From a virus: a stretch of DNA of 6,071 nucleotides. Position 1 is the first letter of the stretch. Each line of letters begins with the position of its first letter. The position numbers were made by a program, and so were the translations under genes. Shown here piece after piece: positions 1-6,071 of this stretch. The stretch is from UHGV virus genome UHGV-0378151. One strand, written 5' to 3'. Under the pieces are notes generated by a model. That model was not told where the DNA came from, did no database searches, and saw nothing but the letters and a program-made list of their open reading frames with translations.

Positions 1-117
1 CCTTTTCAGGGTCGGCAAAATTAGCCAGCAAGCGACGGATAATTACGGGGATTTCAGCCGCGACCTTCTCCGGCAAATCCTTGTCTTTTTCGTCCTCCCT
101 TACAATGTTGTCGAACC
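1..117. repeat. Left copy of 117-bp inverted repeat (window-truncated, may extend further left)
   Basis: Bases 1-117 equal the reverse complement of 741-857 at 115 of 117 positions (mismatches at 62 vs 796 and 111 vs 747). Both copies encode the same peptide NIVREDEKDKDLPEKVAAEIPVIIRRLLANFADPEK on opposite strands. Confidence 0.9.
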
Positions 118-739
118 GGAAAATCACCCGACGGCGTGACACACCTCCGGCCCGCTCGGTGAATATCATCGGGTTATTGTTGGTAGCCAGCACCACCGCC
201 CTGATTACCGCCGTGAAACGCTTTTCATATTTCGGGTTAATTTCCACGGGGTCGCCGCCTGTGATTTTCTTGATGCCCGTTCCTTCGCCTGTATATTTCG
301 GCTGGTCAGCCAGGACGATAAGACGACTCCCGACAACCTGAGCACGCCCACCAGCATCATCAAGCGAAGTCATTTCAGCGCTTACCGTGTTCTGTTTCCC
401 TGCCAGAAGGCTGGCTATGTGTGTGAATGTACTTTTACCGCTACCGCCCTCTCCGGTGGCCTCAATAAACATCTGCCAGTCGTACCGGTTCGCCATAATC
501 ATGTACAGCGCGGCACATATACGCATCATCTTGCGCGAGTCTTTTCCGGCTGCGTGCTCAAGCCATTTATGAAAGTTTGGCGCGTTATCGCGGATGTTCT
601 CCCCTGGTGCTGGTGGCGTGTACTCAATGCCGTTGTTCGTGGTGATCCAGTTCTCCGGCGTGTGCGGGGAAAATTCCCCCGTTTTCAGGTCAAGCGCACC
701 ATTGGCGAACGGCAGCAAATCGCCGGACGGCTCGCCCAT
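1..739 (-). CDS. P4-family phage/plasmid primase-helicase, central ATPase fragment (partial; 3' end runs off window start; N-terminal primase domain absent)
   Basis: Own minus-strand translation is open from the stop at 866-868 down to position 1. It reads ...LPFANGALDLKTGEF...IEATGEGGSGKSTFTHI (Walker A P-loop, about 428-454)...SRLIVLADQ (Walker B-like, about 305-322)...VIFRFDNIVREDEKDKDLPEKVAAEIPVIIRRLLANFADPEK. First Met is at 737-739. Not in the ORF track because it is window-truncated. Confidence 0.65.
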   Translation of the reverse strand, partial: MGEPSGDLLPFANGALDLKTGEFSPHTPENWITTNNGIEYTPPAPGENIRDNAPNFHKWLEHAAGKDSRKMMRICAALYMIMANRYDWQMFIEATGEGGSGKSTFTHIASLLAGKQNTVSAEMTSLDDAGGRAQVVGSRLIVLADQPKYTGEGTGIKKITGGDPVEINPKYEKRFTAVIRAVVLATNNNPMIFTERAGGVSRRRVIFRFDNIVREDEKDKDLPEKVAAEIPVIIRRLLANFADPEK

Positions 740-1210
740 TGGTTCGGCAACATTGTAAGGGAGGACGAAAAAGACAAGGATTTGCCGGAGAAGGTTGCGG
801 CTGAAATCCCCGTAATTATCCGTCGCTTGCTGGCTAATTTTGCCGACCCTGAAAAGGCACGGGCTTTATTACTGGAACAGCGCGACGGTGATGAAGCACT
901 GGCGATAAAGCAACAGACGGATCCGGTTATTGAGTTTTGCCAGTTCCTGAATTTTCTGGAGGAAGCGCGCGGCCTGATGATGGGTGGCGGTGGCGATTCC
1001 GTGAAGTACACGACCAGAAACAGCCTTTACCGCGTCTATCTGGCGTTTATGGCATACGCAGGCAGGAGCAAACCGCTAAACGTGGCTGAGTTCAGCAAGG
1101 CCATGAAGCCAGCGGCAAAAGTTTACGGACATGAATATATTACGCGGAGAGTTAAGGGAGTAACGCAGACCAACGCAATTACAACTGATGATTGTGACGC
1201 GTTTTTATAA
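419..1210 (+). CDS. Primase C-terminal domain ORF; only 741-1210 is primase-like, the first ~108 codons are antisense to the minus-strand ATPase core (likely chimeric or disrupted gene)
   Basis: ORF track 419-1210. From 741 it reads ...NIVREDEKDKDLPEKVAAEIPVIIRRLLANFADPEKARALLLEQRDGDE...DCDAFL, continuing exactly where the minus-strand fragment stops being homologous. No in-frame ATG or GTG exists between 741 and about 975. Iterons follow immediately downstream, as expected after a P4-type primase gene. Confidence 0.55.
   Translation: MCECTFTATALSGGLNKHLPVVPVRHNHVQRGTYTHHLARVFSGCVLKPFMKVWRVIADVLPWCWWRVLNAVVRGDPVLRRVRGKFPRFQVKRTIGERQQIAGRLAHWFGNIVREDEKDKDLPEKVAAEIPVIIRRLLANFADPEKARALLLEQRDGDEALAIKQQTDPVIEFCQFLNFLEEARGLMMGGGGDSVKYTTRNSLYRVYLAFMAYAGRSKPLNVAEFSKAMKPAAKVYGHEYITRRVKGVTQTNAITTDDCDAFL
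741..857. repeat. Right copy of 117-bp inverted repeat
   Basis: Reverse complement matches 1-117 with 2 mismatches; one is synonymous (GTT/GTC Val), one changes Gly to Asp. Confidence 0.9.
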
Positions 1211-3978: not shown

Positions 3979-4314
3979 ATGAACACTCCATACATTGAGT
4001 TATTTGCAGGCAGTCAGCAGGTATCAACGACGCTGGTACATTTTGCCGCTGATGCTGGCGTTATTCAGGAATTTACCCCGCTGATGCTGGCGGACAATGG
4101 CGAGTTTAAGCCGTGGGATGGTCAGGAATCTGGCAAGGCTGTTTATCTGACCTCGTACCCCGTTGACACGTCGACGCAGAAATCAGCACAGTGCTATAAG
4201 ACGGGGATATTCAATATCGCCGCCGTTAACTGGCCTGAGAGCGTCGACACCGATGCGAAAAAATGCGCCGCCTTTGCGGGTTCTGGCGTATCCGTTCAGC
4301 CGCTGGCCCGATAA
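3979..4314 (+). CDS. Head decoration protein, lambda gpD family
   Basis: TPLMLADNGEFKPWDGQESGKAVYL...CYKTGIFNIAAVNWPESVDTDAKKCAAFAGSGVSV matches lambda gpD [27 protein letters not shown]...[35 protein letters not shown]. ATG 3979 preferred; the in-frame GTG at 3970 used by the track is an alternative. Confidence 0.85.
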   Translation: MNTPYIELFAGSQQVSTTLVHFAADAGVIQEFTPLMLADNGEFKPWDGQESGKAVYLTSYPVDTSTQKSAQCYKTGIFNIAAVNWPESVDTDAKKCAAFAGSGVSVQPLAR

Positions 4315-4326
4315 GCAGGGGGAACG

Positions 4327-4740
4327 ATGGCAACGAATGAAAGCATCATGGCGCTACCGCTGGCGAGTAAATTTAAAGCCGAAGCGCGGGCAATGGCTGA
4401 CAGAGGGTTATCAACCTACGAGGCCGTATATCAACTCAACAAACTGGAAGAACAGGACAAGCCGCGCGCTGATGCGATTATGGCGCTTCATGAACATAAC
4501 GACTATCAGCCGCTGTTACGTGCAATGGCAAACGTGCCATGTATTAGCGTCGATAATGCTCGTGAAATCCTGAACATGACCATAGAGCAGGAGCGCCCAA
4601 AGGTTGCACCAGAGCTTACCGCAGCCTTTGAAAACTTTATGGACATGCACAGCCCGCAAGCCGTATCAGCTGGCATGGCATACGATGGCAGAAACCAGGG
4701 CGATGACGGCGACATCGATCACATACTGAAAACCATCTGA
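4327..4740 (+). CDS. Hypothetical 137-aa acidic protein, positioned where lambda has FI after the capsid gene
   Basis: ORF track. SD AGGGGGA at 4316-4322. No recognisable similarity to lambda FI or any other family; the functional guess is positional only. Confidence 0.5.
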   Translation: MATNESIMALPLASKFKAEARAMADRGLSTYEAVYQLNKLEEQDKPRADAIMALHEHNDYQPLLRAMANVPCISVDNAREILNMTIEQERPKVAPELTAAFENFMDMHSPQAVSAGMAYDGRNQGDDGDIDHILKTI

Positions 4741-4745
4741 GACAA

Positions 4746-4770
4746 GGCCGGAGAAATCCGGCTTTTTTTT
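4746..4770 (+). terminator. Rho-independent terminator
   Basis: GGCCGGA-GAAA-TCCGGC hairpin followed by T8, directly after the stop at 4738-4740. Near-identical to the hairpin at 2472-2493. Confidence 0.75.
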
Positions 4771-4947
4771 ACGGGTCCTTTCCGGCATATGGACCCGTTA
4801 CGGGGCGGCGACCTCGCGGTTTTTCGCTATTTATGAGCCTTTTCAGGGGGGTGGTGGTGGTTTTGTTGTTTGATCTATCTTTATGAATGAAAAGGGAAAG
4901 ATGCAAGCAATACACCAACCTGAAGCAGTAATTAAGTTGGTGTATTA
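4771..4947 (+). other. cos site 1 (plus orientation): lambda-type cosQ and cosN with a divergent cosB
   Basis: ACGGGTCCTTTCCGG...TTACG / GGGCGGCGACCT / CGCGG-TTTTTCGCTATTTATGA is almost base-for-base the lambda right-end/left-end junction as I recall it. The 12-nt cohesive-end sequence GGGCGGCGACCT is at 4803-4814. Downstream of about 4835 it no longer resembles lambda cosB. A perfect 9-bp inverted repeat TACACCAAC (4911-4919) / GTTGGTGTA (4936-4944) ends 3 nt before the ATG. Confidence 0.8.
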
Positions 4948-5490
4948 ATGAAATCTCATCTGATGAACAAAAAAAACATGGCGAAAAGCTGCCGTGTAAG
5001 TGCGACAGCGTTCGACAAGTGGGGAGTAACTCCCGTTGAGCGTAAAGGCCGTGAGGCGTTTTATGATGTTGCCAGCGTGATAGAAAATAGGGTTAACAAT
5101 GCAATTAGCCAGCTTATAAACGACAAAGGCGAGATTGACGATGATGAACTTTTACGAGTCAGGATCAGATTACTGACAGCACAGGCAGAGGCGCAGGAAC
5201 TTAAAAACGATCGCGATCGCGGTGACGTGATTGATACTGAGTTTTGCCTGTACGCGCTTTCAAAGCTGGCGAGTCAGATTTCATCAATCATGGACAGCCT
5301 CCCGCTTACTATGCAAAGGAGCTTCCCACAGATTACCCCCGCCATGCTGGATAGGCTTAAAAGGGAAGTGGTTAAAGCCTGTAATGCCAGTGCCAGAGTT
5401 GCCGACAACCTCCCACAGATACTGGCTGATTACTTGAAAGAAACAACCGGAAACGTACCGGAAAAGTTGCTACAGAAGAAAGGCGAGTAA
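4948..5490 (+). CDS. Terminase small subunit, lambda Nu1 family
   Basis: Colinear with lambda Nu1: N-terminal region (KSCRVSATAFDKWGV vs ADIFGASIRTIQNWQEQGM) and strongly in the C-terminal half (LTAQAEAQELKNDRDRGDVIDTEFCLYALSKLASQISSIMDSLPLTMQRSFP vs LTRAQADAQELKNARDSAEVVETAFCTFVLSRIAGEIASILDGLPLSVQRRFP). Alternative start at ATG 4963. Confidence 0.9.
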   Translation: MKSHLMNKKNMAKSCRVSATAFDKWGVTPVERKGREAFYDVASVIENRVNNAISQLINDKGEIDDDELLRVRIRLLTAQAEAQELKNDRDRGDVIDTEFCLYALSKLASQISSIMDSLPLTMQRSFPQITPAMLDRLKREVVKACNASARVADNLPQILADYLKETTGNVPEKLLQKKGE

Positions 5491-5712
5491 CAGACGCGCA
5501 ATTATTGAACAAAACTGAGAAACGACATGAAAGCGTCATAAATCGCCATTTTAGATGATTACCGTGTCGTTTCTTTTTATTGTGTATCTATTTAAAAACA
5601 AATAGTTATGTTCGAGAAGTACCGACATGCTTTTTCCAGAAAAATTTTCATAAACAGATAAAAACCGCGAGGTCGCCGCCCCGTAACGGGCCATAATTCC
5701 AGGAAGGACCCG
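5491..5712 (-). other. cos site 2 (minus orientation): lambda-type cosQ-cosN plus lambda-like cosB
   Basis: Reverse complement of 5661-5712 reads CGGGTCCTTCCTGG...CCCGTTACGGGGCGGCGACCTCGCGGTTTT, with a perfect match of about 30 bp to cos1 (4794-4823). Continuing on the minus strand, TTTATGAAAATTTTC, CATAACT and the inverted GAAACGACA (5519-5527) / TGTCGTTTC (5565-5573) motifs track lambda cosB closely. Complement of the cohesive-end 12-mer is at 5670-5681. Confidence 0.8.
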
Positions 5713-5745
5713 ACGACACCAGACTATCAGAACGATGGGGGCACA

Positions 5746-6027
5746 ATGACAGAAGCCGAAATACTGGGATTAATCCGCCGCGTTGCCGGAATCAGCCAGC
5801 AGGTTGACGAACAGGCCACGCAGCCGGACAGCGTGATCGCCGAAAATTACGCGCGTGTTGTTGCTGATGTGATGCGCCGTGATGGTATTGAGCTTAACGG
5901 CGTGGATATGCGCGACATACGGATCAGATTCCTTGAGTTGCTGGCCTACCGTCGCCGCGTGGAGATGTATCGGGAGAAGGAGAAAATAACGTACCACTGG
6001 AAGAAGCCGGAGCGGTTGCGGCGGTAA
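5746..6027 (+). CDS. Hypothetical 93-aa protein
   Basis: ORF track. Basic, helical-looking composition; GGGGG 4 nt upstream of the ATG. Preferred over the overlapping minus-strand ORF 5770-5997 because it is longer and follows the operon strand. No family recognised; not similar to the lambda gpA N-terminus. Confidence 0.45.
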   Translation: MTEAEILGLIRRVAGISQQVDEQATQPDSVIAENYARVVADVMRRDGIELNGVDMRDIRIRFLELLAYRRRVEMYREKEKITYHWKKPERLRR

Positions 6028-6071
6028 CTGGTTGATATTCCCGACGGACCAAAAATGGGTGGCTACATCCC

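Follow-up and report, generated by a model that had tools for sequence, protein, structure and literature searches.

The stretch of DNA analysed here (6,071 nucleotides of virus genome UHGV-0378151; hereafter, the window) is the late, packaging end of a phage-inducible chromosomal island (PICI) of about 10 kb, of the cos type and of the EcCICFT073 family found in Escherichia coli. Towards its right end, two lambda-type cos sites, cos1 and cos2, lie in opposite orientation on either side of a gene for a homologue of the lambda small terminase subunit Nu1 (hereafter, terS-like gene; TerS and TerL denote small and large terminase subunits). A preliminary description, made from the letters of the window alone, had drawn attention to the pair. 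The features of the locus are listed below, and loci retrieved for comparison are numbered from L001.

4327–4740, plus strand: orf137, conserved left-flank gene that follows the capsid E-like and D-like genes (open reading frame list).
4744–4770, plus strand: terminator-like hairpin with a T-run in the gap between orf137 and cos1 (terminator scan; the same hairpin is present in CFT073).
4773–4779, plus strand: cosQ1, GGGTCCT (motif search; alignment with lambda cosQ).
4794–4824, plus strand: cosN1 core, the first 31-nt arm, with the 12-mer GGGCGGCGACCT at 4803–4814 (repeat and motif search).
4825–4947, plus strand: I2-like segment and island-specific cosB1 (the match to phage cos ends at about 4848).
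4948–5490, plus strand: island small-terminase homologue, 180 aa, Nu1-like, with a divergent N-terminal DNA-binding region (Pfam, phrog, BLASTP).
5491–5659, minus strand: cosB2, complete and of phage type (alignment with lambda and PhiR5_1 cosB). Its parts, read on the minus strand, are R1 CATGTCGTTTCTC at 5517–5529, R2 AAGAAACGACACGG at 5562–5575, I1-like CATAACTATTTGTTTTTA at 5593–5610, R3 CATGTCGGTACTTC at 5616–5629 and I2 at about 5633–5659.
5660–5690, minus strand: cosN2 core, the second 31-nt arm, with the 12-mer at 5670–5681 (repeat and motif search).
5705–5711, minus strand: cosQ2, GGGTCCT (alignment and motif search).
4825–5659, no strand assigned: the cassette cosB1 – terS-like – cosB2 between the cosN cores, found exactly inverted in natural isolates.
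5746–6027, plus strand: orf93, conserved right-flank gene, followed by the end of the island (open reading frame list; phrog_1561).

Two convergent cos sites bracket a small-terminase gene

A repeat search of the window returned two inverted arms of 72 nt each (4772–4843 and 5641–5712), 82% complementary and separated by a 797-nt spacer. Both arms contain a perfect 31-nt core, CCCGTTACGGGGCGGCGACCTCGCGGTTTTT, for which no match was found in 200 dinucleotide-preserving shuffles, and the cohesive-end 12-mer of lambda lies inside this core. The cosQ heptamer stands 30 nt upstream of each 12-mer, the same distance as in lambda. The starts of the 19-mer cores are 866 nt apart, and the sites are convergent, with both cosB sides facing inward and the 180-aa open reading frame between them. 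The preliminary description had given a perfect core of about 30 bp that includes the 12-mer, a spacing of 867 bp and a head-to-head placement around the Nu1-like gene, with a lambda-like cosB on cos2 directed into the 3' end of that gene and a divergent cosB on cos1 ahead of it; the present analysis agrees on each of these points.

EcCICFT073, the model Gram-negative PICI, occupies the roxA–phoQ site of E. coli CFT073 and carries a 144-aa rppA in the slot of the 180-aa gene. The window derives from a sister of this island, for which the core finding of two cos sites is already published. Each EcCICFT073 site enables plasmid transduction by lambda and phi80; deletion of cos1 strongly reduces transfer of the island, and deletion of both sites abolishes it (Fillol-Salom et al. 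2018, PMC6092414). It is also only for EcCICFT073 that induction, excision, replication and transfer by a helper have been demonstrated experimentally (PMC6092414). RppA binds helper TerS and the complex prefers the cosB of cos1, the essential site, whereas cos2 is not essential (Fillol-Salom et al. 2019, PMC6739421); RppA raises the transfer of cos1 plasmids, and the cosB of cos1 confers this RppA dependence (PMC6739421). Proteins of the Rpp family are approximately 139–154 aa long. They begin with a winged helix like that of TerS (R21/T22 recognition helix), lack the C-terminal part of TerS, and heterodimerise with helper TerS.

The two islands share their family, gene order, orf137 and orf93 flanks, terminator hairpin and near-identical cosQ and cosN. 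In both, convergent cos sites surround a packaging-specificity gene, and cos1, with a non-phage cosB, lies directly upstream of it (the repeat arms of EcCICFT073 are at 17529–17605 and 18263–18339 of L003). They differ in the gene, which encodes the 144-aa RppA there and a 180-aa Nu1 homologue without detectable similarity to it here, and in cosB2, which is of PhiR12 type there and of lambda/PhiR5_1 type here. The accessible text of the 2018 and 2019 papers and of Murialdo and Feiss 2022 (PMC9026076) reports no recognisable phage cosB in EcCICFT073, and the words 'inverted' and 'orientation' are absent from the 2019 main text (PMC6739421) and from the text of the 2018 supplement (PMC6092414). 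No later paper on the two cos sites of the EcCICFT073 family was found in the literature. The additions made here, not found in the searchable literature, are modestly novel: a TerS encoded by the satellite where EcCICFT073 has an Rpp, a cosB2 that is complete and occurs as several alleles, the frequent loss of cos2 and flips of the cassette.

The bracketed gene encodes a satellite small terminase

The 180-aa protein matches the Pfam family PF07471 (Phage_Nu1) with E=3e-23 and 82.6 bits (cut-off 30), and phrog_57 over residues 1–174 with E=8e-53. Its residues 6–166 align with residues 3–180 of lambda Nu1 at 36% identity (E=1e-33). Identity to the TerS of PhiR5_1 is 42%, and the best phage TerS match in 50,697 phage records was N15 gp1, at 44%. 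Taken by segment, identity to PhiR5_1 TerS is 31% (residues 1–55), 56% (56–100), 62% (101–140) and 28% (141–180), so that the DNA-binding end and the extreme C-terminus are the most diverged parts. A PDB sequence search with the protein gave no meaningful match.

The gene lies downstream of cosB1, as expected of a Nu1-type gene, but not upstream of a gene for the large terminase, and is in this sense a satellite orphan: tblastn with the N-termini of lambda and PhiR5_1 gpA found no TerL match beside it in the window or in 80 related loci. Relatives at 80–100% identity occur in 80 IMG/VR loci, almost always in an island context, with capsid E/D-like genes in 77 of them and orf93 in 69. Given the absence of TerL matches and of phage TerS proteins above 44% identity in the records searched, the gene is restricted to satellites. 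Surveys of satellites already count a capsid gene and terS among the usual components of PICIs (PMC10085698; PMC10111431); a functional study of this cos-type TerS was not found in the literature.

Two other identities were considered and rejected. The protein is not an Rpp, since it is 180 aa long, shows no similarity to RppA by BLASTP (E=3.4) and aligns instead with Nu1 over nearly its full length; the recognition-helix region reads SATAFDKW in the island protein and NRTTIRAW in RppA. An origin of the gene and cosB1 from a known phage was likewise set aside, with the TerS proteins of the phage records searched at most 44% identical and cos1 matching phage cos through cosN/I2 only.

The island of E. 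coli GF60 (L087 3001–3893) encodes a 194-aa hybrid small terminase. Over its N-terminal ~100 residues it is almost the same as the TerS, of 21 type, encoded by the helper prophage of CFT073; its C-terminal half is of the island type. A forward phage-type cosB lies upstream of the hybrid gene, and the island lacks both orf137 and cos2. The composition of the hybrid is evidence that TerS proteins of helpers and islands have exchanged domains at the conserved AQA(D/E)AQELKN segment.

cos1 carries an island-specific cosB

Resemblance between cos1 and phage cos extends through cosQ, cosN and I2 only (approximately 4766–4848 of the window) and ends some 33–45 nt past the 12-mer. Beyond this boundary are two motifs, each present in one copy in the window: TGGTGGTGG at 4852–4860 (about +50), found in 82 of the 83 TerS-type loci, and ACACCAACC at 4912–4920 (about +110), found in all 83. 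Both are retained whatever the state of the cos2 side. A third motif, GTTGGTGTA at 4937–4945, is the inverted partner of ACACCAACC and is less conserved. We infer that these motifs are candidate equivalents of R sites for the island TerS-like protein, and their inheritance together with the terS-like gene makes the protein and cosB1 a candidate pair.

The Rpp-type cos1 of EcCICFT073 has ACCACCACC at +55 to +63, as proposed by Murialdo and Feiss, whereas the top strand here carries GGTGGTGG. Both types of island cosB1 contain a GGT/ACC triplet repeat at approximately +50 to +63, on opposite strands (window 4846–4860; L003 17613–17621), although the two specificity proteins have unrelated sequences. 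The length of the poly-G/GGT tract varies among relatives (L014–L016). Some relatives (L057–L066, L068, L076, L080 and L085; about 150 nt upstream of terS) have other 12-mers at cosN1, namely GGGCGGAAGGCG, GGGCGTCAGGCG, GGGCGGCAGACG and GGGCGGCTGACG, and keep cosQ, I2 and the cosB1 motifs. These altered 12-mers suggest adaptation to helpers with different cohesive ends.

cos2 is a complete helper-type site with several alleles

On the minus strand, cos2 aligns with the cos of lambda and PhiR5_1 through the whole of cosB (R3, I1-like, R2 and R1), with 75% identity to lambda and 83% to PhiR5_1 over some 125–150 nt. The TGTCG[GT]T motifs of R3 and R1 lie on one strand and that of R2 on the opposite strand, as in lambda. 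The end of R1 is 27 nt away from the stop codon of terS, at the place where the Nu1 start would fall in a phage. The site thus has a cosQ about 30 nt upstream, the cosN 12-mer, I2, R3, an IHF-site region, an inverted R2 and R1, all with lambda-like spacing. In structure, cos2 is a complete helper-phage-type site, and this allele is predicted to be cut and used in packaging.

Diversity was calculated from 32 loci with both sites (30 distinct sequences). It reaches 0.20–0.29 per nucleotide across cosB2, as against 0.05 in terS and 0.04–0.05 in the cosN2/cosQ2 segment. Decay was rejected as the source of this variation, since the cosB2 sequences sort into discrete alleles. Within nearly constant flanks, each allele has three R sites that agree with one another, and the alleles have phage counterparts (a weak one for beta). 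The alpha allele (TGTCGTT) is lambda/PhiR5_1-like; the best phage match of beta (CAGATCC) is weak (73%, SerU-LTIIb); and gamma (TGTCGGGCC) is 80% identical to the cos of phage 21, with its annotated terminase and IHF sites. The cos2 of EcCICFT073 matches the cos of PhiR12-type phages at 93.3% identity over 179 bp, well into cosB. This kinship explains why no phage cosB was seen in that island in the published comparisons with lambda, phi80 and phage 4.

The island TerS-like protein was considered as the factor that recognises cosB2, and this was rejected. Identical N-terminal 48-aa sequences of TerS co-occur with alpha, beta, truncated, absent or other cos2, and since one DNA-binding-domain sequence pairs with several cosB2 alleles or with none, cosB2 is not the target of this protein.

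The state of cos2 was surveyed in 83 loci, with the following result.

33 of 83 loci: lambda-type cos2 present (17 alpha, 14 beta, 2 gamma).
24 of 83 loci: no cos2.
9 of 83 loci: cos2 deletion stump.
11 of 83 loci: other cos-like sequence in the cos2 slot.
6 of 83 loci: locus ends too early to score cos2.

In the stumps, the segment from the terS stop codon into cosN is removed, and CGCCGCCCCGTAACGGG and cosQ are left. In 5,426 complete E. coli genomes, the terS–cos2–orf93 junction was found in approximately 481 and the cos2-less junction in approximately 225. Of RppA-type IMG/VR loci with a lambda-type cosN that reach far enough, 20 of 20 have both sites. Other cos-like sequences occupy the slot between terS and orf93 in L070, L071, L079–L082, L085 and L084. 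In one such variant, a cosN-like ACGGGGCGGGAGCATCGCGG is followed at about +51 by CACCACCAA, a motif similar to that of the Rpp type. In L084, three R sites of the AGGATCTGA type are present, but another sequence takes the place of cosN.

These frequencies bear on whether cos2 is of any use to the island. It is conceivable, although we are inclined to doubt it, that cos2 is a non-adaptive passenger, left by recombination with lambdoid helpers, which can still be cut, brings no benefit and is being lost. The absence of cos2 from 24 loci and some 225 genomes and its truncation in nine loci are in line with this, as is the published rise in EcCICFT073 transfer when cos2 is deleted, slight with phi80 and significant with lambda (PMC6092414), and so is the mismatch in CFT073 between the cosB of cos2 and that of the resident helper. 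Where cos2 is present, however, it is complete from the cosQ at -30 to R1; cosN2 and cosQ2 are conserved like coding sequence; and at least four cosB2 alleles each keep three consistent R sites, which is not expected from random decay. Moreover, cos2 is kept in some 481 genomes and in all 20 scorable RppA-type loci, and published plasmid transduction and residual island transfer proceed through it. The preliminary description had held that an inert cos2 missing from related elements would count against its proposal. Many close relatives do lack cos2 or have it truncated, and the site is hence accessory; its retention in so many genomes speaks against an inert remnant.

The cassette is inverted in natural isolates

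For the cassettes of the window and of CFT073, the junction expected after a core-to-core inversion was built and then searched for in complete genomes. The flipped terS cassette is present in PM4-5 and LZHX12, with a full-length junction match at 97.6%. In PM4-5, window positions 4772–5712 align in reverse (L086 4030–3091) and both flanks align forward. The terS-like gene of both genomes is annotated on the strand opposite the capsid, decoration, orf137 and orf93 genes, and the genes are intact. As the two loci (L086 and L088) are 99.7% identical and at the same site, they were counted as one event. For the rppA cassette, the flipped junction was found in 31 genomes and the canonical one in 69. 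The flipped genomes encode an rppA product with the same protein accession as that of CFT073, on the opposite strand and at the same phoQ site, and come from Japan, China and Thailand and from human, cat and river-water sources. Several independent flips among these 31 genomes were considered and rejected, since four flipped loci that were retrieved have identical protein accessions and flanks, and here too a single event was counted. Exact inversion between the cosN cores has thus occurred in two natural lineages, with 33 genomes in total. None of 105 IMG/VR loci is flipped, and no recombinase gene adjoins the cassette in the open reading frame list or in annotated islands.

The preliminary description had raised the possibility of a segment invertible by recombination between the repeats. 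The inverted repeats and both orientations are indeed found, whereas an adjacent recombinase and frequent switching within clones are not. Inversion does take place and gives a stable product whose genes are intact, yet it has the look of a rare, lineage-fixed event, not of a switch. It is accordingly very improbable that the pair forms a programmed switch of packaging direction or of specificity-gene expression. The exactness of the core-to-core inversions, in both types of cassette and with genes intact, would suit a switch; the single flipped lineage per type, the lack of an invertase or recombinase gene and the absence of flips from the IMG/VR loci would not, and as both cos sites are structurally unchanged by the flip there is nothing obvious to switch. 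The Hin, Gin and Cin systems are similar in that a segment with short inverted repeats occurs in both orientations in nature. The cassette differs from them in having no dedicated recombinase, in having terminase cut sites as its repeats, in the rarity and lineage fixation of its flips and in the functional equivalence, on paper, of its two orientations.

An alternative that we regard as unlikely is that the convergent pair delimits a terminase-bounded, exchangeable cassette that is cut and re-inserted in either orientation. A double cut at cosN would free cosB1, the specificity gene and cosB2 for a swap between co-resident islands or with the cos DNA of a helper. Such exchange would explain the natural flips. 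It would also explain the difference between CFT073 and Nissle 1917, in which the whole cassette differs at the same chromosomal site, with borders at the cosN/I2 cores.

Island context and distribution

Complete E. coli genomes contain positions 4300–6071 as a colinear segment, with identity of up to 98.9%, and at least 80% of this segment is covered in approximately 490 of the 5,426 genomes, including Nissle 1917 and IHE3034. In annotated genomes the order of genes, up to the host genes, is integrase, helix-turn-helix (HTH) regulator, Icd-like protein, DUF4222 protein, primase, PerC, a 68-aa open reading frame, lambda E-like major capsid protein, D-like decoration protein, a 137-aa open reading frame, 'terminase small subunit' and a 93-aa open reading frame. 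The order int – alpA-type HTH – icd-like – primase – (ssb) – perC – capsid E-like – D-like – orf137 – cos1 – gene – cos2 – orf93 is common to L001, Nissle 1917 and EcCICFT073. The window proper comprises the 3' end of the primase gene, iterons, SSB, PerC and the capsid E-like and D-like genes, and Pfam matches in it are SSB, PerC, Phage_cap_E, HDPD and Phage_Nu1.

Assignment to the PICIs follows from an island of about 10 kb with int, an alpA-type regulator, primase and few late genes, set between host genes (L001, L002, L003); from a lambda-type cosQ and cosN with a cosB unlike the helper's, upstream of the specificity gene; and from a second cos beyond that gene, with the same relative position and cosQ2-side flank as in CFT073. 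orf137 matches phrog_1999 and, more weakly, the C-terminus (scaffold-like part) of the phrog_53 head maturation protease. In EcCICFT073 and most TerS-type loci it precedes cos1; in related loci that reach far enough, orf93 follows cos2 or the terS-like gene. A cross-species survey with orf137 in genome contigs gave nothing usable.

The genes for the lambda E-like major capsid protein, the D-like decoration protein and the 137-aa protein lie between 2912 and 4740. For the published model island, however, packaging is said to be into heads of phage size, and its capsid gene is reported to be dispensable for transfer. Directly downstream of the primase gene, at 1230–1450, GGGTAGAGG-type iterons cluster in both orientations and look like the replication origin of the island. 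At the start of orf93 (L070 4290–4320, L071 and L080), a tandem ATGACC hexamer is present in 5, 3 and 2 copies in otherwise similar loci.

At the left end of the window (1–857), the first ~750 bases correspond, in reverse complement, to an internal stretch of the island primase gene (L001 8998–8249), and a 117-nt inverted repeat (1–117 and 741–857, 98%) joins this reversed piece to the forward continuation. The foldback is not present in complete genomes and is probably an artefact of assembly or amplification. It had raised the suspicion that the cos pair might itself be an assembly artefact; this was rejected, as cos1, terS and cos2 are colinear in hundreds of complete genomes.

Comparison with other packaging systems

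With the cos sites of lambda, 21 and PhiR5_1, cos2 shares every element, the spacing and the orientation of the R sites, and cos1 shares cosQ, cosN and I2. In comparison to lambda cos, the island cos2 does not have Nu1 and A behind it but abuts the 3' end of terS in antisense, the cosB of cos1 differs, and both sites belong to a satellite without a large terminase. The TerS-S of Staphylococcus aureus pathogenicity islands (SaPIs) offers a parallel in concept for the protein: it too is encoded by a satellite, is homologous to TerS, has a DNA specificity of its own and works with the helper TerL (PMC6739421). That system packages headfuls from pac in staphylococci, whereas the present one has cos, a Nu1-family protein and a second, helper-type site.

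Satellites that carry the cos of their helper are also known. The PICI 11capE, embedded in its helper, has 258 bp of the helper's cos at 90% identity (PMC10111431), and cos islands of the SaPIbov4/SaPIbov5 type carry the helper's cos, SaPIbov4 being reported with two putative cos sites (PMC6092414). These elements rely on helper specificity; here, an island-specific and a helper-type cos are combined in opposite orientation.

A model for two packaging sites

Starting from the observed anatomy and homologies of the locus, the allele structure of cosB2 and its independence from the DNA-binding domain of TerS, the loss or truncation of cos2 and the flips, the model proposes binding partners within this island and an adaptive reason for the orientation of the sites. 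We think it probable that cos1 is the island-specific packaging site and cos2 an accessory site of helper type, so that the island has two entry sites with different recognition modules. In cos1, a lambda-type cosQ, cosN and I2 would be fused to cosB1 to make the cognate site of the TerS-like protein encoded directly downstream. The divergent N-terminal domain of this protein would bind cosB1 and bring the helper large terminase to cosN1; its central assembly region resembles that of helper TerS and may allow interference with the latter. cos2 would be usable by unmodified helper terminase, as an exchangeable module of lambda/PhiR5_1, phage 21 or PhiR12 type that has been lost in many islands. 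The preliminary description had likewise assigned cos2 to the helper terminase and cos1 to a redirected one, which agrees with the EcCICFT073 experiments, the invariance of cosB1 and the independence of cosB2; the correction is that the redirecting protein would be a full-length TerS homologue and not of the Rpp type.

Lambda requires cosN and cosB for initiation, packages in the direction from cosN to cosB, and terminates only when cosQ and then cosN are met in this order with the head nearly full. A run started at either island site would meet the other backwards after 0.85 kb and should ignore it. By the lambda rules, neither site would therefore terminate a run from the other, because the order of cosQ and cosN is wrong for it.

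The convergent geometry would also protect the cassette. Cutting would leave 5'-GGGCGGCGACCT on the cosB-side end and 5'-AGGTCGCCGCCC on the cosQ-side end, so that both ends of the cassette would have the GGGCGGCGACCT overhang and both flanks AGGTCGCCGCCC. With matching overhangs on each side, the flanks could not anneal together and the cassette could re-anneal either way. Homologous recombination between the inverted cos repeats would similarly flip the 0.84-kb cassette and not delete it, whereas with sites in direct orientation a double cut or recombination would delete terS. As convergence permits a flip only, the terS cassette should not be lost by either route, a geometry that fits the flipped isomers observed.

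The same orientations invite the idea that the opposed sites package chromosomal DNA beside the integrated island, by cos-type lateral or specialised transduction. cos1 is directed to attR and host genes and cos2 back through the island, and in CFT073 the cos of the helper prophage (1,424,744, plus strand; L118 5745) is co-oriented with island cos1 (1,387,558; L003 17559) at a distance of 37,186 bp, close to the smallest length that a lambda-sized head accepts. We give this idea very little credence. Cos terminases need a second co-oriented cos to finish, and cos phages are for this reason considered poor transducers (PMC6687093); PICIs undergo excision and concatemeric replication (PMC6092414); the window contains nothing that calls for host packaging; and cos2 is directed into the island, not into the nearby host flank. 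The mobilisation of flanking host DNA envisaged in the preliminary description is therefore not upheld, CFT073 offering one suggestive geometry only. With its helper prophage at icd, a cos-to-cos molecule carrying phoPQ–purB–icd is geometrically conceivable there.

Several points weigh against an island-specific cos1 with an accessory, helper-type cos2. The adaptive rationale for convergence leans on the established termination rules of lambda, and in this island the TerS-like protein is predicted, from sequence and context, to bind cosB1 and to work with helper TerL. By global alignment, the last ~40 residues of the protein are only 18–28% identical to lambda, PhiR5_1 and 21-type TerS, which makes its compatibility with TerL uncertain. 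A scan for sigma-70-like promoters inside the cassette found none, which makes the expression of terS hard to account for, especially in the flipped isomers. Finally, cos2 is dispensable, as the cos2-less genomes and deletion stumps attest; its deletion raises the transfer of EcCICFT073; and in that island its PhiR12-type cosB is unlike the 21-type cosB of the resident helper prophage. The gain on deletion and the frequent natural loss indicate that cos2 is costly when cos1 works well and, taken with the helper mismatch in CFT073, that any benefit must be conditional. We thus regard cos2 as a conditional asset, a fallback or a helper-range module.

Significance

Islands of this kind are present in hundreds of sequenced E. 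coli genomes, among them those of the probiotic Nissle 1917 and the pathogenic IHE3034 and CFT073, and members of the EcCICFT073 family are transferred at high frequency by lambdoid helper phages, which they also block. Why some islands carry two cos sites was left open by the original authors, and the division of labour proposed here offers a concrete, testable answer. In a large sister group of islands, a full-length small terminase of the satellite takes the place of Rpp, and the natural flipped isomers indicate that the cassette between the sites is mobile. Should the cassette prove to be exchanged by terminase cutting, it would constitute an in-vivo cut-and-paste route for the evolution of packaging specificity, and would itself answer why some PICIs keep two cos sites. 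The findings are relevant to the prediction of helper range, to the evolution of packaging specificity and to delivery vectors based on PICIs, for which a second cos lowers transfer in the published assay.

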